Shown here one piece after another: positions 2,374 to 52,906 of a DNA stretch of 55,825 nt (within the stretch, counting starts at the first letter, position 1; each line of letters starts with the position of its first letter). The position numbers and the translations under genes are program-made. The DNA lies in assembly GCA_964561365.1 (NCBI GenBank), contig CAZLPF010000005.1:1-55825 (forward strand), written 5' to 3'. The DNA comes from an uncultured Candidatus Saccharibacteria bacterium. Its GTDB lineage: Bacteria; Patescibacteriota; Doudnabacteria; UBA920. The notes beneath the pieces are model-generated. The model was not told where the DNA came from and searched no databases. It worked only from the letters and a program-made list of their open reading frames with translations.

Positions 2374-2443
2374 GGCGAAATTATAGCGTAGCTAAGGGTA
2401 GAAGCGGTAGCGGCAGGGGCTTTTGGGCGGTATACTGTAGCCC

Positions 2444-32529: not shown

Positions 32530-32594
32530 GTCCTTCGGGGAAATCTGGCGGCCAACGGTCATGTGCTGTTTGTTGCCAGATTCCCCTGAAGGAC
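32530..32594 (+). promoter_or_regulatory. Long 5'-UTR hairpin
   Basis: GTCCTTCGGGGAAATCTGGCGGC pairs with GTTGCCAGATTCCCCTGAAGGAC; inner AACGG/CTGTT. Confidence 0.6.
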
Positions 32595-32638
32595 TACAAA
32601 GTCCGGATGGTATTCGTTCGCAACAGGAGAAACACAGG

Positions 32639-33826
32639 ATGAAAATCTTTCTGGCGTTCATTACGGCCAGCCTCATTTGGGGCACGGCCTTCGCGCAAGA
32701 GACAACCCGGGAGCGCCTCGCCGCTCTCGACCGCAACGAAGCGGCTGCCAAGCAGCTCGCTGCTACTACCACCAAGACCACGACCAAGAGCGTTGAACGG
32801 AGCGCGATCGTGACTCGGTGCGAGCAACCCCTATACGTCGCCCTCAACGGAAACGAAGGTGTGCGGGCGATCTGTGATGTTGACAACAGCGGCAGCGCAG
32901 ACGCATCGTACTCGTTCTTTCGGCTCCCCGAAGAGTCAGGCAACTACGTGTCTGCACTCGGGACCAACCGGATGGGCAGCGTCATGTTCCTCGCGACCGA
33001 TCAGGGCAGCATTCTCCGTTTGTCAGACACCAACCAAGACGGCGTGGCCGATGAGAAGAGTACTGCCGAGAATCCTGGACTCGCCTATACGGAGCGCATC
33101 CTGCCGCTCGACGGTACGGCGCCGCTCATCTACACAGAGAACGCGCAGGGCGGACGATTCAACCTCTACCGTTTGGAAAGGAATGAAACGGTGGTACAGG
33201 GGGGCGACATCCCCCGCGGCGCACGACGGGTTGCCGGTTCGATTATGATGCGCGACGGCGTGCTCACCATCGACGCCGCTCAAGACATGGTCAGGAAGTA
33301 CGCGCTCAATGGCGTCGGCTACCTTGATAACACCAACTCCCGGAACGAGGTCATCCTCCGCGGCGAACGCATTACGAGCATTGCCTACGACGAACGCGCG
33401 AGCCTCCTGTTCGTACTCATGGCCGGCAACTGCGGCGACATGAACGTTCCGCAGCCGCCCCCCGGCGGCCCGACGCCGCTCCCGAGCGTCGTCAATACGT
33501 GCAGCGCCCCGGTTACCAAAGTCTACCGTCTCACCGGGACTTCACTTCAGCAAGTCGGAGCCATGAGCCACACGCTCCTGAACGTGAGCTACAATCTTTC
33601 CGGGCACCCCATGGCGGCCAGGAACGGCAAGCTCTACGTTACGGTGTTCGGCAATGATCGGGAACGTGGACGCAGCGGGCATCAGATTATTGAGCTGCGT
33701 TACGATCAGGCTACCGGACGCCCAATAGATGTGCCCACGGTATTCGCCGACTCGGTACATCTCGGAGATTACGCTTACCTCAAAGGACTCACGTTCTTCG
33801 ACGGCGGGCCTGCTCCGGTCAACTGA
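32639..33826 (+). CDS. Secreted hypothetical protein (395 aa), beta-rich, with DxNxDG-type motifs
   Basis: RBS CAGGAG; signal peptide MKIFLAFITASLIWGTAFA; DVDNSGSAD and DTNQDGVAD. Confidence 0.75.
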   Translation: MKIFLAFITASLIWGTAFAQETTRERLAALDRNEAAAKQLAATTTKTTTKSVERSAIVTRCEQPLYVALNGNEGVRAICDVDNSGSADASYSFFRLPEESGNYVSALGTNRMGSVMFLATDQGSILRLSDTNQDGVADEKSTAENPGLAYTERILPLDGTAPLIYTENAQGGRFNLYRLERNETVVQGGDIPRGARRVAGSIMMRDGVLTIDAAQDMVRKYALNGVGYLDNTNSRNEVILRGERITSIAYDERASLLFVLMAGNCGDMNVPQPPPGGPTPLPSVVNTCSAPVTKVYRLTGTSLQQVGAMSHTLLNVSYNLSGHPMAARNGKLYVTVFGNDRERGRSGHQIIELRYDQATGRPIDVPTVFADSVHLGDYAYLKGLTFFDGGPAPVN

Positions 33827-33889
33827 CCCACAAACCTTCTCTCCTATCTTCCAGCAGCGAGCCTGTTCCTCCTTCTCGCTGCTGTATCC

Positions 33890-33931
33890 GCCGCCGGCCT
33901 GCGCTCCCCGCAAGCCGGCGGCCTTCTTTTT
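33890..33931 (+). terminator. Intrinsic terminator
   Basis: GCCGCCGGC...GCCGGCGGC + CTTCTTTTT; a second 10-bp hairpin lies at 33852-33884. Confidence 0.65.
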
Positions 33932-34004
33932 ATCTACATTGCCCGACATCATTTTTTGTGCTCTAATGGTTGCAGATACCGAGGGCGTGTCCAGAAACCA
34001 AACC

Positions 34005-40102: not shown

Positions 40103-40372
40103 CTACTTTTTGACGAGCTTGCCAATGGCTTTCGCCATGCGGCTCTTCTTGCGGGAGGCGGTGTTCTTGTGAACCACGCCGCGCTTGGTGGCTTTGTCGA
40201 GAGCGGCCATGGCCTTCTTTAAGGCCTCGGCGGCTTCGCTCGCCTTGCCGGCGGCCACGAGCTTGCGGACTTCCTTGATGGCACTCTTCACCGCGTCCTT
40301 GCGGACGAGGTTGCGGGCGCGGCGGCGGATGTTTTGGCGCATGGCCTTCTGCGCCGACTTGGTGTTGGGCAT
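40103..40372 (-). CDS. rpsT: 30S ribosomal protein S20
   Basis: MPNTKSAQKAMRQ, VVHKNTASRKKSR. Confidence 0.97.
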   Translation of the reverse strand: MPNTKSAQKAMRQNIRRRARNLVRKDAVKSAIKEVRKLVAAGKASEAAEALKKAMAALDKATKRGVVHKNTASRKKSRMAKAIGKLVKK

Positions 40373-40906
40373 TCGTTCGTTACGTTAGTGCGATTTGCTG
40401 TGTGCGCCGAGCGGTGGCGCTGCGAACACGGTGGACGTATTCTAGCGAAACCAACAATAAAAAACAAGAGGATTTTATATACGTGCCTACCCTGAAATTA
40501 GTGCGCCAATCCGTGTCCCGTTAGGCAACGCTTGTAGTAATAATTCCAACTTGCTGTTATGCTAGATTCAATATAAGCGTAGCCGTTTGTAGCCTCTAAC
40601 GAATACAGTTCTCTAATTTTTTAAAGGACGATAACTACACAAATAAAAGGCGAACGTTAGTACACCAACCAGTACGATCATTAGTTATACTTTGAACCAG
40701 TTATGGGTCAGCCAGTGCATAGCTTGACAGTTTATTGATAAGATGATAGAATATTTTGCTATACTAAATGTAGCTTCTGAAGGTTTTGAAAACAGAGTGG
40801 TCCCGCTGGCGGAATTTGTACCCGCAAGTACGGGCAGTACAAAGGTTAACAAGATCATCACGTTTGCTAATTTCGCCACGGAGGGACAACCCTACTTTTG
40901 AAAATC

Positions 40907-40982
40907 AGAACGCCCGTAGGGCGGGGAACTGGCGTTAATAAGTGCCATGGATGGCTCCAGTCCCCCGCCCTACGGGCGTTCT
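40907..40982. repeat. 26-bp inverted repeat (1 mismatch) with 24-nt spacer
   Basis: AGAACGCCCGTAGGGCGGGGAACTGG ... CCAGTCCCCCGCCCTACGGGCGTTCT. Confidence 0.85.
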
Positions 40983-40985
40983 TTT

Positions 40986-41759
40986 TTATTCCGACTCCGC
41001 TTCTTGTGGGCCGGGATTTTTATTTTCTGCTGGATTGTCCTTGGGGAGCGCTTTGTCAGCAAAGGCTTCTAGAGCTTTTTTCAGGGTAAACCAGTCGGCA
41101 TTTAATTGTTCGTCATCAAGTAAACGATTTTTTAGTGTTGCTGGCAAATTTAACACCAACCTGCCATCAGCTACTGGCGTCGGAGAAAAGCCGTGTAAAT
41201 TTTCGGGCAGATGTTCTTCGTGCTTGTGGACCGCAGCCGCAGCTTTAGTTTTTGCGGCTGGCGTTCCGGTTTTCGCCTTCGACTCTCTCTTTCTTGACGC
41301 AACCGTGCCCTCTGGTTTCAGCCCGGCATACTCACAGAGCTTGTAAAAGAATGGTATAGCAGTGGTCGCGATGCGTTTTGACAGGCCGTACTGGGCAACA
41401 AATTCGTTATAAAGATCGACCTGGGGCAAGTTCTGGGGATTATCGACGCTATCGAATAATTTTTTATAAGCTGTCCGCACAATTTTTTCGAATTCAGCTT
41501 TCCTCGCTTCACCCTGTATCCGGAGCTTGGCCATTGCTTCGGTTGGTTGCCCGGCGTCGTTTACTAGGCCCAAGAACTTCAGGGCGTTGAATGCGAGCAA
41601 GGCATCGTTAGGGCTAAACCCCCGGGCAGTAAAGAAAGAAACTGAAACCTCGGTCAGGTTACGGGTGGAAATGAGCTCAATAGTCTGCACGAGCTTTACC
41701 ACGCTGAAATAAGGGGGGGTTATCTGTCTAGGTTTTTGGGGTTCGGTACTTGTAGTCAT
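40986..41759 (-). CDS. DUF5343-like hypothetical protein
   Basis: PPY...GFS...ALKFLGLVNDAGQPT pattern recalled for DUF5343; low GC; TTGACA-17-TATAAC promoter upstream. Confidence 0.6.
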   Translation of the reverse strand: MTTSTEPQKPRQITPPYFSVVKLVQTIELISTRNLTEVSVSFFTARGFSPNDALLAFNALKFLGLVNDAGQPTEAMAKLRIQGEARKAEFEKIVRTAYKKLFDSVDNPQNLPQVDLYNEFVAQYGLSKRIATTAIPFFYKLCEYAGLKPEGTVASRKRESKAKTGTPAAKTKAAAAVHKHEEHLPENLHGFSPTPVADGRLVLNLPATLKNRLLDDEQLNADWFTLKKALEAFADKALPKDNPAENKNPGPQEAESE

Positions 41760-41987
41760 ATAAGTTCATGTTATAGGAATCCCAATTATGTGTCAATACC
41801 CATTTTTATTGGGGTTTTTCACTTCTGGGGTTGTGGCCAAAGACTTCATGGGGATTCTAAAACAAGTACTTGAATTGGTCAATATATCGCGGTGGTTTTT
41901 TATAAATCTTCATTTTTGGCTTACTTATAAGGGATAATATACTTATTCTGACTTAACAACCTTAAACTATCTTGCTTCTATACATTT

Positions 41988-42187
41988 ATGAACACAATAC
42001 AATTCACCAACCTAATAGAGTTTATGCCGTATTTTAAGGACGAGGCCGCCTGCACCCATTATTTCGAGCAAATCCGCTTCGGGACGGGGAATACTGCCCC
42101 CATTGCCGCAACCCTAAAATCTACCGCATGAATGACGGCAAAAGATTCCGTTGCGTCCGTTGCCAAAAGGACTTCACTATATTATAA
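41988..42187 (+). pseudogene. IS1595-family transposase N-terminal remnant (frameshifted, truncated)
   Basis: FKDEAACTHYFEQIRF, then in a shifted frame DGEYCPHCRNPKIYRMNDGKRFRCVRCQKDFTIL* (zinc ribbon). Confidence 0.8.
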
Positions 42188-42268
42188 ATCCCAAAACAAG
42201 GGTTTCGGACCCCCTTGCGCCGGCGGCTCGGTAGGAATAGAGTGCCTTGAATTTCCGGGAGGTAACAT

Positions 42269-42883
42269 ATGTTTTCAGCTTTCAGCGTCGCCGATGCGAT
42301 GCGCGCGGTAATCTTTCACGTGCTAACGGTAGCGGGTCTTTCGTGGTACTGCTACTGCGGCATCGTCCGACGTACAACCACTAACTTCTTTGTCTGGGTT
42401 ACGCTCGCGGCTGTTGGCTGCATTGCAGCCTGGCAGGGTATCGACGTTTTACCCGTCCCGTGGTTCCTGTTCGTCATTATGGCTTTCGTGGTCGTCATGG
42501 TTGAGAACCCAGGCGACCAAAAGGAAGAAATTGAACGAAATCGTGCGTTCGATGTTCCGGTTTGGATCGCGCTGCTGCTCGCGACGGTCGGGCGGTTGTT
42601 CGGACTCAGCGACGCGAACGCCGGGTACTGCCTGCTCGCCGTCGTGGCTTTGGTCGGAATTCGGTTGCTCGTGAAGGTTAGCAGCGGCCCATCCTCTGAG
42701 CCGCTATTGGCCTGGGCCTGCATCGCTTCGGCCGCGGTGTTTAAGACGACATCTGCGTGGTCCTCCTACGATACCGTAGCGCTCGGAGACGTGGTATGGC
42801 TGGCGTTTAGCCTCACCTTGCTACTCGGGGGTCTCGCTGTCCGCGCCGTGTGCTACCTCTCTCTGGCTGGAGTTGCCCGCTGA
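42269..42883 (+). CDS. Multi-TM hypothetical membrane protein
   Basis: RBS GGGAGG; about 6-7 hydrophobic segments. Confidence 0.75.
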   Translation: MFSAFSVADAMRAVIFHVLTVAGLSWYCYCGIVRRTTTNFFVWVTLAAVGCIAAWQGIDVLPVPWFLFVIMAFVVVMVENPGDQKEEIERNRAFDVPVWIALLLATVGRLFGLSDANAGYCLLAVVALVGIRLLVKVSSGPSSEPLLAWACIASAAVFKTTSAWSSYDTVALGDVVWLAFSLTLLLGGLAVRAVCYLSLAGVAR

Positions 42884-42942
42884 AGTGTGCCACACCATAC
42901 TATTTGCCCCGCGCGTTCGTCGAACGCGCGGGGCATGCTGTT

Positions 42943-43389
42943 TTATCGCCGTTTGTAGCGTCGGATCGGTCCGGCGTCCCACTGGGCAGTCAGGCTGAAT
43001 TTGTGGCCGTGGAGTGGGCCGGTAATCCACGAGAGGGTGAATTTTTCGCCGATCCTCAGCCATAAACCCCGCGCTACGGTTTTCCGCGGGCCGAGATTTA
43101 TGACCTGCTGCACCGTGCCAACATCCAGGCGGTGCGGCTTTTCTGTTCCCTCGGCGGGAACGAAAACGGTCAGCGATGACGAACAGCCCGTGAGCGTTCC
43201 CTGCGGCTGGCGTCTGGTATCGTCCCCCGCGCACGGCGCGGCGGTGGCGAGGTGCGGCTGCACCGCCTCCTGCATTCCGTGTGCCGCTGCCCCCCAAACG
43301 AGGGCCTGCTGCGCCGGCTGCGCACCTACAAAACCAGTGAAACAAACAACTGCCGTAACGGCGAGCAATACCCTCGTTAAAATTTTCAT
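42943..43389 (-). CDS. Secreted hypothetical protein (148 aa)
   Basis: Signal peptide MKILTRVLLAVTAVVCFTGFVGA. Confidence 0.65.
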   Translation of the reverse strand: MKILTRVLLAVTAVVCFTGFVGAQPAQQALVWGAAAHGMQEAVQPHLATAAPCAGDDTRRQPQGTLTGCSSSLTVFVPAEGTEKPHRLDVGTVQQVINLGPRKTVARGLWLRIGEKFTLSWITGPLHGHKFSLTAQWDAGPIRRYKRR

Positions 43390-43472
43390 ACGTGAACCCT
43401 ACACCTCGCCCCTGCTTCCGGCAAATGAAAAGGACCCGCGGCGTTGTGTAGCCGCGGATCCTATCGTGCAGT

Positions 43473-44087
43473 TTACCGGACGGTGTAGGCGAGCCCTACC
43501 CCGACGGTTTTTGTGGCGCTCCCCCGAAAGCGAACGGGGATGCCGTACTCGGCGAGAAAGGTCAGCTTGCCGACCGGTACGGCGATGCCGACTGGTACGT
43601 TCAGCACCGGATCGGGCGGCGTGAACAGCTTGCCGGCCGCTTGCCCGAGCGGAACCAGGCTGCTGAGGCCCACGTACGGAGAGTACGCGAACTTCTTTAC
43701 CTTCAGGTCCCAGCTCCCGAGCAGTGCCGCAAAGTAGGTAACCGCGCCGTCCCCCCGCCGGTTTACCGGGACATTCAGGAGCTGAAAAGTCCCCAGGTTT
43801 CCGTACTTCGATTTTATGAAGTTCACGTTGAACCCTGGTGTTGCGGTGAACTGCGTCCGGCCAGTCGTAGTTGTGTGCGTCACGCAACCGTAGGCATCAA
43901 CGCGGTTGTTGATGCCGTACGCCACGCAGCCGTAGCTGAATGCTACCTTCGGCAGGCCTTCGGTCAAAATCAGGTTCGGCCCAATGAAAGCCGTAACTTT
44001 GTCGGTACCCGAGGTCGTCGGGACGTTGAGCGTCTGCGCCTGGAGCGCGGCGGCGAGCATCGCCAAAAAAACCGTTTTCACGAACAT
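43473..44087 (-). CDS. Secreted beta-strand-rich protein (204 aa)
   Basis: Own RBS CAGGAGG, ATG 44087, signal peptide MFVKTVFLAMLAAALQA; alternating polar/hydrophobic strands; in frame with the upstream ORF. Confidence 0.7.
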   Translation of the reverse strand: MFVKTVFLAMLAAALQAQTLNVPTTSGTDKVTAFIGPNLILTEGLPKVAFSYGCVAYGINNRVDAYGCVTHTTTTGRTQFTATPGFNVNFIKSKYGNLGTFQLLNVPVNRRGDGAVTYFAALLGSWDLKVKKFAYSPYVGLSSLVPLGQAAGKLFTPPDPVLNVPVGIAVPVGKLTFLAEYGIPVRFRGSATKTVGVGLAYTVR

Positions 44088-44366
44088 GGTGTGTCCTCCT
44101 GTAACGTTTGGGAATCCAATTCCGGATTTCTGATGCGGCATCAGGCTCCCGGAAAGGGAGGGAAGCGCCCGGTAGAGGTGCTTCCCGAGGTTGGGGTCGA
44201 TGGCTGCTGCGGCGAGGCACAGCAGCAGGGCGATGGCCCACAGCACGAGCGCGTCGTGGAGGGCGGTCATCCGTTGCTGTTCGGTCGTTGCGCGCGTGTA
44301 GCGTACAGCATTCGAGAGAACCGCTGCCGCCATAAATATCCAAGAGAACCCTAGAAATACGAACAT
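44088..44366 (-). CDS. Small two-TM ORF with no stop, reading into the downstream gene
   Basis: RBS TAAGGAGG, ATG 44366; two hydrophobic segments; its 3' part is the repeated intergenic element. Confidence 0.5.
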
Positions 44367-44401
44367 GAGAACCTCCTTATGTGCAGCCTCTTTAGCGCTG
44401 G

Positions 44402-44665
44402 CTAGGCGTCGAGCGCTGGTAACCGCTCGGTGAATTTCTTTCCGCCGATGCGTCGGTAGTCAGCGGCGAGCGCGTCGTACCACCCGGGCAGCGTATTCCG
44501 CTCATCGATGCGACACTCGGTGAGCAGCTGCAGCGCCGCGCGCAGCTCTTGCGACCGGCCTCGGTTCAGGGTGGGGAAGCCGTCCTGTTTGTGGCACCAC
44601 ACCGTGCGGATCGCGTCGAGCAGCTGTTCGTAACCGCTGATTTTCATGCCAATTACCATGTACAT
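44402..44665 (-). CDS. Hypothetical protein (first gene of cassette 1)
   Basis: RBS AAGGAG after a sigma70 promoter; 87 aa. Confidence 0.65.
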   Translation of the reverse strand: MYMVIGMKISGYEQLLDAIRTVWCHKQDGFPTLNRGRSQELRAALQLLTECRIDERNTLPGWYDALAADYRRIGGKKFTERLPALDA

Positions 44666-44692
44666 GCCCTTCTCCTTTTTGTTTGAAGAGAC

Positions 44693-44827
44693 ATAGTACC
44701 ATAAAGAATCATTTAGGTCAATAAGTATGATTATTAAAGTTTAAAAAACTGTTTTATTTAAAAGATAAATTTAGATATACTTATAATAATCAAAAAAATT
44801 GACTAAGCACTTCATTTGCCATACCAT
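44693..44827. promoter_or_regulatory. Divergent sigma70 promoters with palindromic operator candidates (cassette 1)
   Basis: Minus: TTGACC-17-TACTAT. Plus: TTGACT-17-TACCAT. TCA-N7-TGA over both -35 boxes. Confidence 0.7.
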
Positions 44828-44833
44828 TAATGC

Positions 44834-45580
44834 ATGGAATTAACCGACGTTTTGCGTTCCGCCGGTCTCAGCGACAAAGAGGCGGCTGTTTACCTCGCGC
44901 TCCTCGAGCTCGGGCCGTCGACCGCCTACCGCATTGGTCCGAAGGCCAAACTGAAACGGCCGATAACCTACGTTGTTCTGGAGCAGCTACAGCGGCGGGG
45001 GTTGACCTCGGTGGTGCCCCAGGGCGACCGGAAGCTGTACGTCGCTTCAGAGCCGGGCAAGCTCCTCGGCGAGCTTGAGCACAGCCGTGAACTGTACAAG
45101 CGGTTCTTGCCGAACTTCGAAGCGCTCTACCAGAGCACCGAGGGGAAAGAGAAACCCCAGGTGCAGCTCTTTGAGGGTGACGAGGGCATCCGTCACGTCT
45201 ACGACGAGATCCTGAAAGCGCGCGAGGTCAGTTTTTTTGCGACAATCCGCGACTTCATGGAATTTTATCCGGAGTTTGCCGATGAGCTCATCGCGGGCGC
45301 GAACGCCGGCCGCCTGCGCGTGCGAGAAATTTTGAGCCAAAACCCTGCCGATCTCGCCTTCGCCGCGCGGGTTCGCGGAACCGCGAACTATGAGCATCGG
45401 CTCGCGCACGCCGGCAGCGAATTTCTGACGGACAACTGCCTGTTCTCGAACAAGGTGACTTTTTTTGCCTACCAGCCGTTCCGCTTCGCGGTCGTAATCT
45501 CGAGCAAGGCAATCTGCCAGTCCATAACCACGCTGTTCGAGCTGGCTTGGCGGGCCGCCACGCCGCTGGGCGAACGGTAG
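44834..45580 (+). CDS. TrmB-family winged-helix transcriptional regulator
   Basis: GLSDKEAAVYLALLELG...KLKRPITYVVLEQL, VQLFEGDEGI; C-terminal effector-like domain. Confidence 0.88.
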   Translation: MELTDVLRSAGLSDKEAAVYLALLELGPSTAYRIGPKAKLKRPITYVVLEQLQRRGLTSVVPQGDRKLYVASEPGKLLGELEHSRELYKRFLPNFEALYQSTEGKEKPQVQLFEGDEGIRHVYDEILKAREVSFFATIRDFMEFYPEFADELIAGANAGRLRVREILSQNPADLAFAARVRGTANYEHRLAHAGSEFLTDNCLFSNKVTFFAYQPFRFAVVISSKAICQSITTLFELAWRAATPLGER

Positions 45581-45595
45581 TTCGTACCGACCTTC

Positions 45596-45671
45596 TGTAC
45601 CTCCTCTGGGCACCCAACTGACTTGCGGTGCTCGGAGGAAGTGGGGAAGCGCGCGGCTTCCCCGAGGTTGT
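45596..45671 (-). repeat. Repeated intergenic element, copy E (no start codon follows)
   Basis: AACCTCGGGAAGC...GCTTCCCCACTTCC-hairpin-GAGGAGG. Confidence 0.6.
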
Positions 45672-46511
45672 TTATCCACCCGCTCTTTTCCAGGAGTGAG
45701 AGCTACCGAAGTAAGCGGTTCCGCCCTGGTGGAGGGGGTCGTGGATTTCCCCGAAGCGCGGCGTGCAGCCGTCTTTCCCGAGCAGTGGCAGGAATTCGAC
45801 CACGTCGAGCCCCGCGGCAGCGAACGCCCGCAGGTCCCGCCGCGGTCCGCCGCCTTTGTTGTGGGCGTCCGTCGCCGCTTGCCAGCGCCCTCCCGCGAGC
45901 TGGCCTGCGACAGCGTTCAACACGTCCCAGTCTTCTGTTCTCAAGGGGTGGTAGGCCGCGAGCTTCTTTTCAAGGGAGTAGGCGCACTGGTGCGGCCCCT
46001 CCCGCTCCACGAGCTCGCAGAACCACTGGCCGAGTTCGTTCATCCACCAGCTACCGAGCTTGCCGATGCAGGCGGCGACGAACACATCGTCCAGGAGCCA
46101 GTGGTTGATGCGTTCCGCGCCCTGCATCCAGTCTGTTGCTTTGCCCTGGTCCCACACGAGCTCGCGCTCGGTGGTATCGGCTGCGGTGGAGATGAGGAGC
46201 AGGTCTTCGAGCACGAGTGGTTCTTGTATGGCGCCAATCGTCCTCAGCAACTCCTTGCGGCAGCGCAGGAACAGCTCCTTGAGTGACGATTTCTGACGAA
46301 CGCGCTCGGAGCCGCTGTAGATAATGCCGACAGCGTTGGTAACGTCGGCGTCATCGGCGTGGCTCTTCGATGCCCACAGCGCCCGCTGTAGGACGTTGTA
46401 GTCGCGTGCGCTGAGCAGGGCCTCGGTGAGCCGCAGCCGAGCGACGGCATTTGCGAACGGGTAGGGCTCAATTGCCTTCCGCAGAGCTGCGGATTCATTT
46501 TCGTTTTTCAT
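45672..46511 (-). CDS. Hypothetical helical protein (279 aa)
   Basis: RBS CAGGAGG; no recognised motif. Confidence 0.7.
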   Translation of the reverse strand: MKNENESAALRKAIEPYPFANAVARLRLTEALLSARDYNVLQRALWASKSHADDADVTNAVGIIYSGSERVRQKSSLKELFLRCRKELLRTIGAIQEPLVLEDLLLISTAADTTERELVWDQGKATDWMQGAERINHWLLDDVFVAACIGKLGSWWMNELGQWFCELVEREGPHQCAYSLEKKLAAYHPLRTEDWDVLNAVAGQLAGGRWQAATDAHNKGGGPRRDLRAFAAAGLDVVEFLPLLGKDGCTPRFGEIHDPLHQGGTAYFGSSHSWKRAGG

Positions 46512-46623
46512 GTACGTATCCTCCTGGGGTTTCCTGTTTCCAGTCCGCTATGCATTGCGGCCTGGAAAGGGGAGGGAAGCTGGTCTGGGCAGGGTACCGG
46601 GCTTCCCGAGGGTTTGGTGGTCG
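46512..46623 (-). repeat. Repeated intergenic element, copy A
   Basis: CCCTCGGGAAGC...GCTTCCCTCCCCTTTCCAGG...AATGCATAG...CTGGAA...CAGGAGG. Confidence 0.75.
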
Positions 46624-47007
46624 TTAGTCCACGGTGACGTGCTCGAGCGCTCTGTCACCGAGGAGCTCTCGGACCGCGCCAACCAAGACTTTCACGTTCA
46701 GGCAATCGCCGAAGTTCGAGCCCCACCTGCGGAGGCGGAAACTCGCCTGGCCTTTACCGCGAACGGTGGCTTCGACGTCTTCCGGCTTCAGGCCTGCTTC
46801 CTCTACTGCCGCGACGACCGCGGTGACAATCCCAAATACCGGGCCGTAGAGCTGGGCCCCCGAGGGCATCGGGCTTCCGTTGTGGTAGTAGACGATCTGC
46901 AGGCACTCCAAACAGAAGCTCACTTCAACGAGCGCTACTCCGGTTTGGGTGTTTCCGTAGATGTGGCGCACGCGCGCACAGAAACGGTCAATCCTGGTCA
47001 TGGTCAC
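46624..47007 (-). CDS. Hypothetical protein (127 aa)
   Basis: RBS TAGGAGG 8 nt before GTG; contains CLEC. Confidence 0.65.
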   Translation of the reverse strand: MTMTRIDRFCARVRHIYGNTQTGVALVEVSFCLECLQIVYYHNGSPMPSGAQLYGPVFGIVTAVVAAVEEAGLKPEDVEATVRGKGQASFRLRRWGSNFGDCLNVKVLVGAVRELLGDRALEHVTVD

Positions 47008-47097
47008 TTACTGTTCCTCCTATGGTTCCAACGTTCAGCGAGCGAGCGCGTCGTTCGCTAAAAGAGAGAGGGAAGCTAGGCTTCCCTTGCGTTTCCG
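47008..47097 (-). repeat. Repeated intergenic element, copy D
   Basis: GGGAAGC-CTA-GCTTCCC TCTCTCTTTTAGCGA...TCGCTGAA CGTTGGAACC ATAGGAGG. Confidence 0.7.
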
Positions 47098-47388
47098 CTA
47101 TTCGCTAACGTCCGATTCCGGTTCACGGACCTCGTAGTGGGTGCCGGTCGTCGCCATGAGGGTCTGGTAGGCCTGCGCGGCGAGCGAGAGCGAGCCGACG
47201 ATGCTGGCCCGGCTGCTCCGGTTCTTCTCCATGCCGAGCTTGTCGGCGACCTCTTCCCACGTGGCGTGTTTGAATTCGGTCGAAAGCTCACAGTACGCGG
47301 CCACGATGCCCTTCGTCCGCTCGGTCATGTCGAGTTCGTTCGCACCTCGGCGGAGCGCGTCGGGTGAATACTTTTCATAAAGAGCCAT
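47098..47388 (-). CDS. Small hypothetical protein, possible HTH
   Basis: RBS CAGGAGG, ATG 47388; ATWEEVADKLGMEKNRSSRASI resembles an HTH. Confidence 0.65.
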   Translation of the reverse strand: MALYEKYSPDALRRGANELDMTERTKGIVAAYCELSTEFKHATWEEVADKLGMEKNRSSRASIVGSLSLAAQAYQTLMATTGTHYEVREPESDVSE

Positions 47389-47470
47389 GGTTCCTCCTGA
47401 AGGTTCCAACTTCCAGCCCGCTATGCATTTCGAGCTGGAAAAGGGAGGGGAGGTTTTATAAGCTTGCCAG
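47389..47470 (-). repeat. Repeated intergenic element, copy B (lacks first hairpin)
   Basis: CCCCTCCCTTTTCCAGCTCG-AAATGCATAG-CGGGCTGGAAGTTGGAACCTTCAGGAGG. Confidence 0.75.
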
Positions 47471-47490
47471 TTCGTTTTATTTGAAAAGAA

Positions 47491-47626
47491 ATAGTACCAT
47501 AAATGCGTATTAAGGTCAATAATACTGACTTAATAAAACTAAAAATTATCTTTTAAATAAAAGCTTTTTTCTATAATTAAACAATTTGTCAGAAATATTG
47601 ACAGAAAATGAAAATAAGAATATACT
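47491..47626. promoter_or_regulatory. Divergent sigma70 promoters with palindromic operator candidates (cassette 2)
   Basis: Minus: TTGACC-17-TACTAT. Plus: TTGACA-17-TATACT. GGTCA-N7-TGACT and TGTCA-N7-TGACA. Confidence 0.75.
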
Positions 47627-47632
47627 GTAAAT

Positions 47633-48394
47633 ATGGAAATTACTGAGGTTTTGGGACGGGCTGGGCTGGGTGAAAAAGAGGCGAGCGTTTACCTTGCCCT
47701 TTTAGAGCTGGGTACGTCGTCGGTAAACCCAGTTGCCGCAAAAGCCGGCATCAAGCGGCCGACGGCCTACCTCATACTCGACCAACTCAGCCACCAGGGG
47801 CTCGTCAGCGCAGTGCCGCACTCAAAGAAAGTCCTCTATACGGCCGAGAGTCCGGAGCGGATCCTTTCGGAAATGGGCAAGCGCGAGGAGCTGCTCAAGA
47901 GGTTCATGCCGAACCTGCTCGCCCTCTACAACGAGAAGAAAGAAAAGCCGCAGGTGCGGCTGTTCGAGGGGAAGGAAGGCATTGCCAAGGTTTACCAGCA
48001 CATCTACGCGGCCAAGACGGTAAACTTTTTCGGCACCGTGCGCGAGGCGCTCAAGTACGACCCCGAAGACTTGTGGGAGTTCGTTGAGCGTACCCACCGG
48101 GAAGCCATGCACGTGCGCGACCTCCTGTTCCGCACCCCGGAAGACTACGAGTACGCGAAGAAGGCTCGGAACAGCAAGAACTACCAGATCCGTTTTCTGC
48201 CCGAAAGCACGAGGGTCATGACCGACAACGCCATTTTCGGGGACTCCATAGCGTTCTTTTCTTTCCACCCGCAAATTTTTGCGGTGGTCATTGAGAGCCG
48301 CGAGATTGCGGCGGCGGTGCGCTCCCTCTACGAGCTCGCGTGGGCCGGGGCCGAACCGCTCGAGGCGGTGCTCGGGTCGCAGTCCGTCAAATAA
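47633..48394 (+). CDS. TrmB-family winged-helix transcriptional regulator (paralog of 44834)
   Basis: GLGEKEASVYLALLELG...GIKRPTAYLILDQL, KPQVRLFEGKEGI. Confidence 0.88.
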   Translation: MEITEVLGRAGLGEKEASVYLALLELGTSSVNPVAAKAGIKRPTAYLILDQLSHQGLVSAVPHSKKVLYTAESPERILSEMGKREELLKRFMPNLLALYNEKKEKPQVRLFEGKEGIAKVYQHIYAAKTVNFFGTVREALKYDPEDLWEFVERTHREAMHVRDLLFRTPEDYEYAKKARNSKNYQIRFLPESTRVMTDNAIFGDSIAFFSFHPQIFAVVIESREIAAAVRSLYELAWAGAEPLEAVLGSQSVK

Positions 48395-48425
48395 AAATCC
48401 CCGCCACTGGCGGGGATTTTTATTT
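48389..48425. terminator. Bidirectional terminator-like palindrome with CCGCCA-C-TGGCGG core
   Basis: 18-bp perfect arms overlapping both stop codons. Confidence 0.8.
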
Positions 48426-50486
48426 CTTGATTCGCTTCTTACCCGAGAGCTTCGCGAGCTTCTTGACCTCCGCGATGCGGTCGCGGATTTGGGCCGCCGT
48501 TTCAAACTCCAAGTTCCGCGAGGACAGATCCATTTGCTCGCCGAGCTCTTCGAGGTAGAAGCGGACTTCGTCACCCGAGAGCCTCGAGACGTCGACATCG
48601 GCGTGCGCAAAGTACTCGGGTTCTACCGCCGCTTTGCTGCCGGCCAGGCGCGAGTCCTGAATGCGCTTCCGAATAGACTGCGGGGTAATGCCGTGGTCGG
48701 CGTTGTACTGCTCTTGAACTTTGCGCCGCCGGGTCGTTTCGTCTATGGCCGCCTGCATGGACCGGGTAACGCGGTCGGCGTAGAGGACCGCGTGGCCCCC
48801 GAGGTGGCGGGCGGCGCGGCCCATCATTTGCATGAAGAAGGTTTCACTGCGGAGGAACCCCTCTTTGTCGGCGTCGAGTATGGCTACGAGCGAGACTTCG
48901 GGAAGGTCGAGCCCCTCGCGGAGGAGGTTGATGCCGACCAGTACGTCGTAGACCCCGAGGCGCAGGTCGCGGAGAATCTCGAGCCGGTCGAACGTTTCCA
49001 CGTCCGAGTGGATGTAGGCGACCTTGATGTTCGCCTCTTTCAGGTACTCGGTCAGCTCTTCGGCCATGCGCTTGGTCAGCGTGGCAACGAGCACGCGCTC
49101 GTGCGCGGCAATGCGTTCGCGGATGCGTTCGCCGAGGTCGTCGACCTGGTTCTTTATGGGCTTTATCTCAATGGTCGGATCGAGGAGCCCCGTGGGCCGG
49201 ACAATCTGTTCGAGCACGGCCGGGGTTTTCTTGAGGCTCGCCTCGCTCACCGACTTGCCCTTGGCATCGACGTTCTCGGCCAGGCTCTTACGGATTTCGT
49301 ACGGCGCCGGCGTGGCTGAAACGTACACCGCCTGGCCGACCTTGCCCTCGAACTCTGAAAACCTGAGGGGGCGGTTGTCGAGCGCGCTCGGCAGGCGGAA
49401 GCCGTAGTCGACGAGGTTCATTTTCCGCGAGCGGTCGCCCTCGTACATGGCGCCGATCTGCGGAATAGTCTGGTGCGACTCGTCTATGAACAGCAGGAAG
49501 TCGTCGGGGAAGTAGTCAATGAGCGTGGATGGCGGCTCGCCCACGCTTCGGCCGTCGAGGTGCCTCGAGTAGTTCTCAATGCCGGCCACGAAGCCGGTGT
49601 TCGTGAGCATCTCGAGGTCGAAGTTCGTGCGCTGCTCGAGCCGCGCGGCTTCTAAAATTTTCCCTTCGCCCCGCAGCACGTTCAGCCGCTCGGCGAGCTC
49701 TTCGCGGACCTTTTCAGCCGCTTCTTTGAGCTGCTCTTCGGGGGCCACGAAGTGCTTCGCCGGAAAAATGGTGAACCCAGGAAGCTCCTCGAGAATTTTC
49801 CGGCTCACCGCGTCCTGGCGCTCTATTTTTTCAATCTCGTCGCCGAAGAACTCGAGGCGGATGACCGTGTCTTCGGACGAGAGGATAATTTCGACGGTGT
49901 CGCCCTGGGCGCGGAACGTGCCGCGGTGGAGGTCCACGTCGTTGCGCTGGTACTGCAGGTCGGTCAGGCGGCGGAGGAGCTTGTCGCGCTTCACGCTCTG
50001 GCCACGCTTGAGTTCGAAGGACAGGTCGAGGTAGTTGGCCGGGTTGCCGAGGCCGTAGATGCAGGAGACCGAAGCCACAATGAGCACGTCGCGTCGCGAG
50101 AGCAGGGCCTGGGTCGCGGCGTTCCTGAGGCGGTCAATTTCTTCGTTGATTTGCGTTTCCTTTTCAATGTAGGTGTCCGAGCGGGGGATGTAGGCCTCGG
50201 GCTGGTAGTAGTCGTAGTAGGAAACGAAGTAGTGGACCGCGTTATCGGGGAAAAATTCTTGGAACTCGCTCGCGAGCTGGGCGGCGAGCGTTTTGTTGTG
50301 GCAAATGACGAGCGTCGGCTTCTGGAGCTTTTCCACGACGTTGGCCATGGTAAAGGTCTTGCCCGAGCCCGTGACCCCGAGGAGCGTTTGGTGCTTGCGG
50401 CCCGCGGCGAGCGAAGCCACGAGCCCGGTAATGGCCCGCGGCTGATCGCCGGACGGCTCAAACGGTGAAGAAATCTTGAAATCCAT
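48420..50486 (-). CDS. uvrB: Excinuclease ABC subunit B
   Basis: [38 protein letters not shown]-terminal UVR coil. Confidence 0.99.
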
Positions 50487-50524
50487 GTTCTTTCAGTGTA
50501 CCGGTTTTCGTTCGTAAGTTGAAT

Positions 50525-50560
50525 AGAAAGAGAACGAGCCGACCCGGGGGGTCGGCTCGT
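50525..50560 (-). terminator. Intrinsic terminator of the putative large ncRNA
   Basis: ACGAGCCGACCC-loop-GGGTCGGCTCGT followed by TCTCTTTCT on the minus strand. Confidence 0.75.
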
Positions 50561-51217
50561 GGTTCGCGCAGGAGGAGGATGACTAGCGCGGCGGATGAAC
50601 TTGGCAGCAGGTGAGGGGATCACACCCCTCGTTCAGCCGCTCGGGCTGATTCCCGTGGCGGGAAACCTGCTAGAAGGAACCTCCTTAGAACTGGCGGGCA
50701 AACAGCGGGCATCACACAACCCACCTGAGCGGCGGGTTTCCGCCAGACGAAGCCTCGTGTTTGCCCATGAACTTGGAAATGTATCGGGGGACTGCGCTGA
50801 CAACTCGCCCGAAAAAACTACCGCGGTGAAATGAGCGTATGCAGTTTTCTACAGGCCAGGCGGGCCGCTTTCGGCGTAGCGCTAGGGCGGCTGCAGTCCC
50901 CCGACGGAATATTTTACCTCTTCGCCTTCATTCCGTCAATAGGAAAGCGGCGCCCCGGGAGGAGGGGGCGCCGCTTGCTTTCGGAGTCGGAAACGTGGTT
51001 CTGCGGGAAAAATTTCACCGCTGATAGCTTACGCTACATTACCCGCAGTGAACGCGAGCCGCTTCCGTTTCGCGTGGTAGAAACCGCCAGGGAACTACCA
51101 CCTTATTGCATATCCTCCGAAAGATTGTGTAGGCCGAAGGCCCAAAAATTCTGGGCCGGGTGCCCGTAGTACCGAACGGCGTCCGCTCAGCTTACGGGCA
51201 CCCGGACCTCCCCGTTC
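50525..51217 (-). ncRNA. Putative ~690-nt large structured non-coding RNA, class unassigned
   Basis: Flanked by its own promoter and terminator; no credible ORF; more than 12 helices including 12-13 bp perfect stems and long-range domain-closing helices; GNRA-type loops on the minus strand. Confidence 0.75.
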
Positions 51218-51220
51218 CGA

Positions 51221-51272
51221 AACTTTACTTCCATTTAGGGTTTTTGTCAACGCCCGCCCGAACCGGTACAAT
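51221..51272. promoter_or_regulatory. Back-to-back promoters sharing one -35 region (ncRNA and ruvA)
   Basis: Minus: TTGACA(51250-45)-18-TAAAGT. Plus: TTGTCA(51244-49)-17-TACAAT. Confidence 0.65.
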
Positions 51273-51280
51273 CGTTGCGT

Positions 51281-51838
51281 ATGCTCTCGTACCTGAAAGG
51301 CACCGTGCTCGAGAATAACCTCACCTACCTCATCGTGCAAACCGGCGGGGTGGGGTACAAGGTTTTCGTGACGCCCGACCTGCTCGGCAAACAGCGGGGC
51401 GACGAGGTGGCCATGTACACGCACCTGAAAGTCGCCGAGGACGGCCAGAGCCTCTACGGCGTCGCCGACTTCGACTCGCTCAAGCTTTTCGAGCTGCTCA
51501 TTACGGTCTCGGGCGTGGGGCCGAAAGTCGCGCTCGGGGTGCTCTCGGCGCTGCCGGCGGGAACGGTGCGCGACGCCATTGCGAGCCAGGACGCCGGCGT
51601 TTTCACCCGCATCTCGGGCATCGGCAGCAAGACGGCCGAACGGATTATTTTGGACCTCAAGGGCAAGGTCGGGCCGTCTTCGGGCGGTTCTTCCGGCGTG
51701 ACGGGCGAGGTTTTCGACGCGCTCATCGCGCTCGGCTACAACCAGCGCGAGGTTCGCGAAATTGTCGGCAAGCTCGACGGCACCAAGTCGGCCGGCGAGC
51801 AAATCAAGCACGCCCTCCAACTTCTTTCAGGAAAATAA
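51281..51838 (+). CDS. ruvA: Holliday junction branch migration protein RuvA
   Basis: MLSYLKG, GGVGYKV, FELLITVSGVGPK, ISGIGSKTAERIILDL, ALIALGY. Confidence 0.97.
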   Translation: MLSYLKGTVLENNLTYLIVQTGGVGYKVFVTPDLLGKQRGDEVAMYTHLKVAEDGQSLYGVADFDSLKLFELLITVSGVGPKVALGVLSALPAGTVRDAIASQDAGVFTRISGIGSKTAERIILDLKGKVGPSSGGSSGVTGEVFDALIALGYNQREVREIVGKLDGTKSAGEQIKHALQLLSGK

Positions 51839-52867
51839 ATGCAAACTTTCGTGGAATTGGGCGCGGCTGATGCCGGCGAGGTGGCCGGCTTTTTGTCGGC
51901 CAACGGCGGAGCGTTCCACCAGGCGAGCGGCTGGGCGGCCTGGCAGCGGGCGTGGGACAGCAGCCGGGAATCTGTCCGGTACGGCGTCCGCGGCAGCGGC
52001 GGCGAGCTCGTGCTCTACTGCCAGCTGCTCCGCATGCCGCTGCCGCTGGGGTTTTACTACCACTACGCGCCGTACGGACCCGTTACCTCCGCCGCCGCGG
52101 ACGCGGCGACCATAGAGACGTTCACCGGCGGGCTGTGGTCGGTGTTACCCGCGAGCGTCTTTTTTCGCTTCGAACCGCGCAGCACCGACATCGACTGGAA
52201 CCGGTTTGGAAAAAAATCCAAGAACATTCAGCCGGGCCGGACGCTAACGCTGAACATTACGGAAGGCGAAGACGGGCTCCTGGCCGGCATGCACCCGAAG
52301 TGCCGCTACAACGTTGGATTGGCCGGGCGCCACGGCGTGGCCGTTGACTCGGAGTTCGACCCCCAGCCGAACCACGGGCTCTACGCCAAAGAGGCGCTCG
52401 ACCTCATCGTCGGCACGGCCGGGCGGCAGGGCTACCGTACCTTCCCGCGCGCCTACTATGAACGCCTGCTCGACTTTTTTCTGGTGCGACGGCAGGGTGG
52501 GGACGTTAGCGTGCATCTCTACAAAGCTTCGTACCAGAACCAGCTGCTGGCCGCGGCTATTGTCGTGGACTACGCCGGCACCCGCACCTACCTCTTCGGC
52601 GGCTCGTCGTCCGAGCACCGCAGCGTCATGGCCCCGTACCTGCTCCACTGGCGCATGGTGCTAGATGCCAAAGCCTCAGGCCTCAAAACGTACGACTTCG
52701 GCGGGCTGGAGACGGCTTCGGGCACCGAGGAAGGATTTACCCGCTTCAAGCGGGGCTTCGGCGGCAGCGAAGCAGTCTTCGCCGGCGCCTACGACGTGGT
52801 GGCGCGACCGGCTCACTACCGAGCCTACGGTTGGTTGCGGGCGATTAACCGTTCGCTGAATCGATAA
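51839..52867 (+). CDS. FemAB/FemX family peptidoglycan bridge aminoacyltransferase
   Basis: FHQASGW, YAPYGP, HPKCRYNV, YLFGGSS, YDFGG, FKRGFGG. Confidence 0.9.
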   Translation: MQTFVELGAADAGEVAGFLSANGGAFHQASGWAAWQRAWDSSRESVRYGVRGSGGELVLYCQLLRMPLPLGFYYHYAPYGPVTSAAADAATIETFTGGLWSVLPASVFFRFEPRSTDIDWNRFGKKSKNIQPGRTLTLNITEGEDGLLAGMHPKCRYNVGLAGRHGVAVDSEFDPQPNHGLYAKEALDLIVGTAGRQGYRTFPRAYYERLLDFFLVRRQGGDVSVHLYKASYQNQLLAAAIVVDYAGTRTYLFGGSSSEHRSVMAPYLLHWRMVLDAKASGLKTYDFGGLETASGTEEGFTRFKRGFGGSEAVFAGAYDVVARPAHYRAYGWLRAINRSLNR

Positions 52868-52873
52868 ATTTAA

Positions 52874-52901
52874 AAAAAGCCCCGCACGCGCGGGGCTTTT
52901 T
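52874..52901. terminator. Bidirectional intrinsic terminator
   Basis: AAAAAGCCCCGC-ACGC-GCGGGGCTTTTT. Confidence 0.8.
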
Positions 52902-52906
52902 GTCGC

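Follow-up and report, generated by a model that had tools for sequence, protein, structure and literature searches.

We analyzed a 55,825-nucleotide (nt) stretch of DNA (contig CAZLPF010000005.1, hereafter the window) from an uncultured bacterium of the candidate phyla radiation (CPR), in which the divergent genes uvrB (48420-50486, minus strand) and ruvA (ATG at 51281, plus strand) are separated by a 794-nt intergenic gap. The gap, read toward uvrB, is a locus of non-coding RNA that folds strongly and strand-specifically, evolves under purifying selection and belongs to no catalogued family. uvrB was recognized from tblastn matches and named homologues, and ruvA from a 100%-identical Joint Genome Institute (JGI) protein with RuvA Pfam domains. 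The closest UvrB (74% identity) comes from a Candidatus Doudnabacteria metagenome-assembled genome, and RuvA homologues are labelled Patescibacteria, Doudnabacteria or Paceibacterales, names that bear out the CPR host proposed in an earlier note on this DNA, which had been made from the sequence alone.

The promoter scan placed a minus-strand promoter, P_A (TTGACA-17-TAAAGT, 51222..51250), at the ruvA end of the gap; the boxes are those reported in the earlier note, with a spacer of 17 nt instead of 18. Its -35 box overlaps that of the ruvA promoter (TTGTCA-17-TACAAT, 51244-51272, plus strand). At the other end lies an intrinsic terminator, T_B (50525..50560, minus strand), which has, as described before, a 12-bp stem (50560..50534) and the tail UCUCUUUCU, with CCC as its loop. 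A weak promoter for uvrB (TTCAAC-17-TACACT, 50487..50523, minus strand), read from the sequence, follows this terminator and ends 8 nt before the ATG at 50486. With a -10 box of its own at this distance from the ATG, uvrB is taken to have a leaderless mRNA that lies outside the RNA locus; uvrB of the relatives likewise shows a -10 box 6-8 nt ahead of the ATG.

All eight helices listed in the earlier note are found on the minus strand, exactly where it had placed them, as perfect Watson-Crick pairings of 7-13 bp. Set against dinucleotide shuffles, the comparison it had proposed, the minus strand of 50525-51217 folds with a minimum free energy (MFE) of -333.5 kcal/mol vs. -267.5 ± 5.8 kcal/mol for the shuffles (z -11.5). 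The plus strand reaches a z of only -4.7, an asymmetry that G-U pairing in a minus-strand RNA would give. Among 738 GC-corrected 693-nt windows of the 55.8-kb stretch, the RNA segment ranks first in stability (-2.8 standard deviations); arbitrary 300-nt windows that cut across its domains show a weaker signal (-1 to -2.8 standard deviations).

We searched Rfam 15 at gathering scores over the whole window and permissively (E ≤ 10) over 50300-51400. The gathering-score scan returned no match, in line with the earlier statement that the RNA has no recognizable class, and the permissive matches were at chance level, the best of them in the RNA region being CcsR1 (21 bits, E 0.02, vs. a cut-off of 65.3). 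Neither scan matched any riboswitch, SRP, 6S, RNase P, tmRNA, intron or large-RNA model, and ARAGORN at default settings called no tRNA or tmRNA in the window, so that the reported lack of a tmRNA, RNase P or intron signature also stands. A TIGR or CRISPR-type array was ruled out, since Tandem Repeats Finder detected no tandem repeats, just short two-copy direct repeats, and a mobile or phage origin was ruled out because neither the 50,697 phage records nor the 72,556 plasmid records gave a match in a sensitive blastn search. A full-text literature search found no account of CPR non-coding RNAs at the ruvA-uvrB locus.

Two contigs of the same species from other samples, L083 and L084, were used for substitution counts. 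Contigs 99% identical to the window are present in the Logan run DRR685536 and in JGI 3300045378. Compared with the window, L083 has 3 substitutions in 693 nt of RNA vs. 69 in 3665 nt of coding DNA (Fisher p 0.0018; 2.1-2.2% divergence in FemAB and ClpB, 1.1% in uvrB and ruvA), and L084 has none in 661 nt of RNA vs. 11 in 548 nt of ruvA (p 1.6e-4). The fewer substitutions than in the flanking genes indicate that the RNA is more constrained than its coding neighbours and under purifying selection. One of the three L083 changes turns a G-C into a G-U pair, another is unpaired and the third opens the terminal pair of a helix in domain B2 (described below).

Relatives of the locus, designated by L-numbers, were reached via RuvA and UvrB homologues and their contigs; a UvrB genome scan yielded the clade member L001 together with L002 and L008, and a RuvA metagenome scan yielded two distant loci. 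The arrangement uvrB(-)/gap/ruvA(+)-FemAB and the RNA promoter are kept in L001, L081/L082, L087, L088, L091, L094, L098 and L099. Gap sizes are 278 nt in L091, 367 nt in L082, 389 nt in L081, 558 nt on the P0124 contig, 565 nt in L099, 597 nt in L098, 696 nt in L088, 745 nt in L094, 794 nt in the window and 1085 nt in L001; more distant CPR loci with the ruvA-uvrB layout have small gaps (70 nt in L002, a member of the Saccharibacteria, and 270 nt in L008). Every clade gap opens with the same back-to-back promoter pair, its overlapping -35 boxes TTGACAA and TTGTCAA lying on opposite strands, which argues that transcription of the gap toward uvrB is ancestral. On this sequence comparison, the locus is the local form of a ruvA-uvrB RNA locus found across a Doudnabacteria-like CPR clade, one that, as predicted from its signals, always starts back-to-back with the ruvA promoter and ends at a terminator before the leaderless promoter of uvrB.

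Within each lineage, the sequences retrieved were identical. Searching the relatives' uvrB-ruvA gaps by blastn-short and nhmmer, an approach already suggested in the earlier note, aligned with the window just a 15-nt promoter block and the 16-nt block AAUCNUUCGGAGGAU, which stands at the same offset in L091. The gaps of L081 and L082 are 82-87% identical and have in common an RNA of ~300 nt (z -4.2 and -5.0) with two compensatory pairs. Gap contents are modular, with a structured leader, one or more tRNAs in some lineages and a trailer ending in a terminator. True tRNAs lie in the gaps of L087 (Thr), L088 (Arg and Asn) and L099-L102 (Val). L094 holds two aberrant tRNA-like genes (2283-2433, minus strand), which exceed the 29-bit Rfam cut-off only slightly (31.5 and 30.4 bits) and escape ARAGORN in its default mode; CCA is encoded in neither of them, and the D-loop of one is oversized. 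As a side observation, L094 also carries, between its RNA terminator and uvrB, a long near-perfect inverted repeat rich in GGGAGGGG/CCCCTCCC (1756-1863), which produces spurious microRNA-family matches on both strands.

In the window, the region is best described as two consecutive units on the minus strand. Unit A (~280 nt, predicted ends 50936..51215; MFE -141.5 kcal/mol, z -6.3) contains a perfectly paired 13-bp hairpin (51205-51156), a UUCG-capped hairpin and a domain closed by CUUUCGGAG/CUCCGAAAG (51123-51115 with 50986-50978), besides two further perfectly paired helices at 51101-51074 and 51048-51001, the latter enclosing UAGC-GUAA-GCUA. It also contains GGAGGAU (51118-51112), a motif resembling a Shine-Dalgarno (SD) sequence and common to L091 (at the same offset), L099 and L001. 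The unit ends in a terminator-like hairpin, T_A (50945..50976), with a 12-bp GC-rich stem, an 8-nt loop CUCCUCCC showing CCUCCUCC at 50965-50958, a weak CcsR1 match and the tail UUUCCUAUU, whose U content is on a par with that of other terminator tails in the window (UUUCUAAAAAA, UGUUUUU).

Directly after T_A lies an internal promoter, P_B (TTGACG-17-TAAAAT, 50911..50939, 10/12 matches), which the earlier note had missed; the promoter scan gave 3 promoter-like sites vs. 0.3 expected in shuffles. Transcription from P_B is predicted to start at ~50904, and this is also where the 12-bp closing helix of the first domain of unit B begins. A -35-like hexamer stands at equal offset after both terminators (CUAUUGACG after T_A and CUAUUCAAC after T_B), and CUAUUCAAC is part of the promoter of uvrB itself. 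The two units fold separately, with z scores of -6.3 (A) and -6.7 (B), and the full-length centroid structure has no pairs between them except 3 bp joining the two transcript ends. The gap of L001 likewise has an internal promoter, with 12/12 matches. Because an internal hairpin and promoter, a coinciding start, parallel hexamers and independent folding all meet at this boundary, we divide the region into a unit A (~51215 to 50936) and a unit B (~50904 to 50525), with read-through of T_A being possible.

The earlier note had instead proposed one stand-alone RNA of ~690 nt akin to the large 'ornate' bacterial RNAs GOLLD, ROOL and OLE. Its stand-alone, non-coding and densely structured nature and its own promoter and terminator are confirmed, and what lacks support is the single transcript. 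A single folded particle, with the internal hairpin and hexamers as mere parts of the fold, would be consistent with the outer promoter and outer terminator that bracket the whole region, the very high helix density, the stable tetraloops (UUCG, GUAA and GAAA), conservation of the entire region within the species and the possible read-through. Against this stand the terminator-like hairpin and promoter exactly at the A/B boundary, the near absence of long-range A-B pairs in the centroid, and relatives whose gaps vary from 278 to 1085 nt without a conserved large core; we thus consider a single particle unlikely. The likeness to the ornate RNAs could not be upheld: GOLLD and ROOL associate with tRNA genes, and the locus resembles GOLLD, ROOL and OLE in overall span, in high helix and junction density and in tRNA-gene association, but the covariance models of GOLLD, ROOL, OLE, raiA and HEARO gave no match at E ≤ 10, the window has internal transcription signals and its syntenic relatives have no alignable core.

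Unit B (~380 nt, predicted ends ~50904 to 50525, minus strand) comprises four domains, B1 to B4. B1 (50774..50904) is a multibranch domain of ~97 nt, closed by the 12-bp helix (50904-50893 with 50795-50784) and followed by the single-stranded tail UACAUUUCCA and then AGUUCAU. B2 (50692..50766) is a long hairpin with a closing 9-bp helix GGGCAAACA/UGUUUGCCC and a T-arm-like hairpin with the loop UUGUGUGAUG, followed by G-CCA (50695-50692) and GUUCU. A linker with the SD-like motif AAGGAGG (50680..50686) leads to B3 (50602..50671), which ends in G-CCA (50605-50602) and is followed by AGUUCAU. B2 is a paralogue of B3, as indicated by the direct repeats D1 and D4 at 92-nt spacing (the GUGUGAU(G/C)CCC and ...CCCGCCA segments).

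What the earlier note had called a four-way junction of three hairpins (50606-12/50665-71) is indeed a junction and, more specifically, the tRNA-shaped cloverleaf of B3, ending in GCCA; this cloverleaf is the MFE structure (-38.1 kcal/mol). It has a 7-bp acceptor AGCAGGU/ACCUGCU (50671-50665 with 50612-50606), a D-like arm of 4 bp with a 3-nt loop CCA, an anticodon-like arm of 5-6 bp with a 5-nt loop in the MFE structure, and a T-like arm of 6 bp with the loop UGUGAU that abuts the 3' strand of the acceptor. B3 thus resembles a tRNA in its cloverleaf, 7-bp acceptor, discriminator base and CCA, and departs from one in lacking a 7-nt anticodon loop with U33, G18G19 in the D-loop and T-Psi-C; in the ARAGORN drawing, the anticodon-like loop has 7 nt, and position 33 is a C. 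That B3 is a true tRNA was rejected, as a 206-nt query gave no match to the Rfam tRNA model (RF00005, 29-bit cut-off) at E ≤ 10.

The 3' ends of these modules stand out from chance. Counting the terminator with the eight listed helices, nine helices have 7 bp or more, and two of these run exactly into GCCA (P about 1e-3); for the junction CCA(A)GUU(C/A), the gap has 3 copies vs. 0.09 expected (P 1.3e-4). The same 3' junction is present at the true tRNAs of L087 (CCA|GUUCU) and L088 (CCA|GUUAU). G-CCA also comes directly after the hairpins H1 and H3 of L081/L082, and the T-arm-like hairpin of H3 adjoins the 3' strand of the acceptor, its stem being GCAG/CUGC vs. GCGGG/CCCGC with pairing kept. 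Viewed as an evolutionary series, these loci seem to lead from true tRNAs via aberrant ones to the tRNA-shaped modules. In minimal substrates, bacterial RNase P reads a helix with a 3' RCCA; that its cleavage depends on a 3' RCCA is stated in PMC12710915.

Several known RNAs offer comparisons for these modules. Plant-mitochondrial t-elements and the MALAT1 mascRNA are tRNA-like processing or mimicry elements, and small RNAs (sRNAs) are derived from tRNA-operon spacers, e.g. the 3' external transcribed spacer of glyW-cysT-leuZ in E. coli. In L087, L088 and L099, the CU-rich module considered below is such a 3' external spacer, extending from the last tRNA to the terminator, whereas in the window the element before the trailer is merely tRNA-shaped and non-decoding, and there is no sequence relationship to the known spacer sRNAs. 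With the tRNA-like mimics, including the mimicry elements of bacterial YrlA/Y RNAs (PMC4201824), the modules have in common an acceptor-like helix, a T-arm-like hairpin, a 3' (R)CCA, the lack of a decoding anticodon loop and a place within a longer transcript. They differ in that Rfam gave no Y RNA match, a long Ro-binding stem was not identified, and their loops depart in size and sequence from those of known mimics.

The last domain, B4 (50561..50601), is a trailer hairpin directly before T_B with the 5-bp stem CGCGC/GCGCG (50590-50586 with 50569-50565). Its 16-nt loop UAGUCAUCCUCCUCCU contains, in its 3' part, the 8-mer UCCUCCUG (50576-50569), and this CU-rich tract beside the final terminator is the sole sequence common across the lineages. 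Its form TCCTCCTG occurs once per gap in the window, L081, L082, L001, L094 and L098, which make up six gaps from five lineages, and each time adjoins the last terminator; none of 78 control regions upstream of uvrB in other bacteria contains it. Degenerate versions are present in L099, L087, L088 and L091. CU-rich hairpins at three loci gave weak Rfam matches to the anti-SD sRNA families CcsR1, ar14 and mmgR, all below the cut-offs (21 vs. 65.3 bits in the window, 34.6 vs. 58.8 in L001 and 28.9 vs. 41 in L091). The tract CCTCCTCC has 7 copies in the window, 2 of them in the ~700-nt RNA region and the other 5 inside open reading frames (ORFs).

A similar hairpin lies outside the gap, in the 3' untranslated region (UTR; 33827-33935) of ORF 32561-33826 (plus strand), which has no Pfam match. 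Here a 10-bp hairpin (33852-33884) with a 13-nt loop CCUGUUCCUCCUU is followed by a terminator hairpin and U tail; the whole (33852-33935) folds with a z of -8.5 and repeats the arrangement of two hairpins seen at 50590-50525 on the minus strand. Possibly, the sRNA module of the gap has a copy here, carried by a 3' UTR.

The nearest known parallel is the cuckoo family of alphaproteobacterial sRNAs (alpha-r14/NfeR1/CcsR1-4/RSs0680; compare mmgR), in which 2-4 adjacent hairpins each show CCUCCUCCC in the loop and multiloops are lacking (PMC4615179). Common features are hairpins of ~26-34 nt with an anti-SD-like CCUCCUCC(C) loop tract, a last hairpin that doubles as or adjoins an intrinsic terminator, stems that vary around a fixed loop motif, and copies in differing 'nests' (here two in the gap and one in the 3' UTR at 33852-33935). 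The cuckoo module rule (length 24-50 nt, loop 9-27 nt) fits B4 (26 nt, loop 16) and 33852-33884 (33 nt, loop 13), whereas T_A is 32 nt long but its loop is only 8 nt. The family definition itself does not apply, as the locus has one CCUCCUCC-loop hairpin per unit, ~390 nt apart, and large multibranch and tRNA-like domains upstream; moreover, the CPR host has hardly any SD-led genes, UCCUCCUG forms the conserved core, and none of the CcsR1, ar14 and mmgR covariance-model cut-offs is reached. By analogy, the window RNAs may work like cuckoo RNAs without being members of the family.

Most window ORFs lack an SD sequence, and many, including uvrB and ruvA, show a TATAAT-like box at a distance of 6-8 nt from the ATG, which points to leaderless mRNAs; CC often precedes the start codons. 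Clear GGAGG SD sequences were found solely at ORFs 42269-42883, 43473-44366 and 45672-46511. The exact complement of the conserved 8-mer, CAGGAGGA, occurs at 46526-46519, in the SD of ORF 45672-46511, and at 47399-47392, just inside ORF 47098-47409; the duplexes predicted between these two candidate sites and the B4 loop have energies of -14.6 and -19.4 kcal/mol. As a separate observation, both sites lie in a lower-GC stretch (~40300-47750, down to 35-40% GC at 47300-47750) that has two large gaps (40373-40985 and 41760-42268) and, near 40930-40990, an inverted repeat that is long and perfect. It also contains SD-led ORFs mostly without a Pfam match, as well as a second TrmB-like regulator and a DUF5343 protein. 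This stretch may be an acquired island.

Taken together, these features suggest a tentative model, which as a whole we hold at somewhat less than an even chance: the locus would produce two tandem RNAs from a remodelled leader-tRNA-trailer operon, with tRNA-shaped punctuation and a CU-loop effector. The two transcription units, A (~280 nt) and B (~380 nt), would each end in a GC-rich terminator and each present the CCUCCUCC tract in a hairpin loop at or just upstream of that terminator. The ancestral design would have been a leader, one or more tRNAs and a trailer, with the tRNA slots taken here by the paralogous B2 and B3. These two would be non-decoding, having kept the acceptor-like helix, the T-arm-like hairpin and the 3' GCCA, and since the retained features are those that tRNA-maturation enzymes read, they most likely act as processing or stabilizing punctuation that frees the flanking RNAs, i.e. 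as retained tRNA 'top halves'. The putative effector is UCCUCCUG in the loop beside the terminator, most likely pairing with GGAGG-type purine tracts; its partners could be the rare SD-bearing mRNAs or GGAGGAU and AAGGAGG inside the same locus, and the mechanism would be that of anti-SD-loop sRNAs of the cuckoo/alpha-r14/CcsR type.

Several points weigh against this model. All RNA ends are predictions, and P_B may be a chance match, with ~0.06 such sites expected on the minus strand as estimated from the shuffle rate. B3 fails both tRNA detectors, and its calling by ARAGORN only at relaxed thresholds of 80-85% amounts to noise, given 109 and 35 calls in the window at 80% and 85%, respectively. 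The retrieved relatives are either near-identical or non-alignable, so that alignable sets hold at most two distinct sequences. Regarding the effector, the pool of anti-SD targets is small because the genome has very few SD-bearing genes, no conserved target site for UCCUCCUG was found among the relatives' neighbouring genes, and pairing between the SD-like and CU-rich motifs within the window RNA is no better than in shuffles.

A broader version of the model extends to the whole clade, where a 'tRNA-punctuated' RNA operon would keep tRNA-shaped modules solely as RNase P and 3'-end signals, yielding CCA-tailed stable RNAs and a UCCUCCUG-loop effector that selectively engages a few GGAGG-bearing RNAs; this extension we regard as doubtful. 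Almost nothing is known of the regulatory and structural RNAs of CPR/Patescibacteria, and the locus offers good handles, being syntenic and easy to find, with clear transcription signals, evidence of selection and one short clade-wide motif. If the model were true, tRNA-derived elements would have been recruited as RNA-processing punctuation in bacteria, and an anti-SD-type sRNA module would have arisen outside the alphaproteobacteria, in a lineage that translates mostly leaderless mRNAs. Should it fail, there is still a structured RNA here that is clearly defined, fits no class and merits a covariance model.

In a different explanation, the CU-rich trailer and GGAG-rich leader form a processing stalk, as in rRNA operons, and the locus is purely a maturation scaffold without a function in trans. 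The duplexes formed by leader and trailer in two relatives speak for it: in L088, the pairing around tRNA-Arg/tRNA-Asn, including the CU motif, has an energy of -41 kcal/mol (equalled by 0.3% of shuffles, p 0.003), and in L099 the corresponding duplex, also including the CU motif, reaches -20.8 kcal/mol (3.7% of shuffles, p 0.04). In addition, the MFE structure of unit B pairs AGGAGG (50685-50680) with CCUCCU (50578-50573) around B3. The pairing is not significant in L087, however, nor in the window, where its 6 bp are equalled by 13% of shuffles. Both motifs are sequence-conserved amid divergence, whereas partners only of each other would be free to co-vary, and a further copy of the CU-loop module occurs away from any tRNA, in a 3' UTR. 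A scaffold alone therefore seems distinctly unlikely.

It is improbable that the locus is a decaying relic of a tRNA operon, structured by descent only and functionless today. True or aberrant tRNAs in the same slot of relatives and the lack of any tRNA identity nucleotides in B3 would fit such decay, but all stems are perfect, promoters and terminators are intact, and the substitution density is at least 4-fold below that of flanking coding DNA.

A cis-acting 5' leader or attenuator controlling uvrB would explain the shared orientation, the position directly upstream of the gene and the conserved synteny with uvrB; yet a strong terminator precedes uvrB, the gene lacks an SD and carries a -10 box of its own 8 nt ahead of the ATG, which would leave uvrB untranslatable within a read-through transcript, and relatives hold whole tRNA genes in the gap, all of which makes this role highly improbable. 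Scarcely credible are hidden small protein-coding genes, since the plus-strand ORFs of 112 and 79 amino acids (aa) in the gap, one of which is called as a gene on the JGI contig L084, have no Pfam match, run antisense to the better-folding strand and have no conserved counterpart in the relatives' gaps, and no start codon lies 5-10 nt past either SD-like motif of the RNA strand. The longest minus-strand ORF within the gap is 56 aa, in agreement with the earlier statement that there is no credible ORF; an out-of-frame 210-aa minus-strand ORF over uvrB extends to the end of the terminator.

Some minor observations concern the neighbouring genes. The -10 regions of uvrB and ruvA (50495-50504 and 51263-51272) have in common CCGGTACA(C/A)T, which may be a joint operator or an extended -10 of both DNA-repair genes. 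A FemAB-family gene (51839-52867 in the window) follows ruvA directly in all clade loci except L094-L097, where one ORF intervenes. FemAB-family peptidyltransferases use aminoacyl-tRNA, and the gene thus adjoins a locus of tRNAs or tRNA-like RNAs. In the 99%-identical strain represented by L083, a 167-nt ruvA-FemAB spacer and two additional small ORFs between FemAB and ClpB have no counterpart in the window (L083 1635-3720 vs. window 51839-52906); its RNA gap is nonetheless 99.4% identical to that of the window. Finally, L103, from a JGI sample that also contains the window's species, carries a truncated uvrB-like ORF (687-1277, 196 aa) that is 83% identical to the N-terminus of the window protein and is followed by unrelated ORFs.

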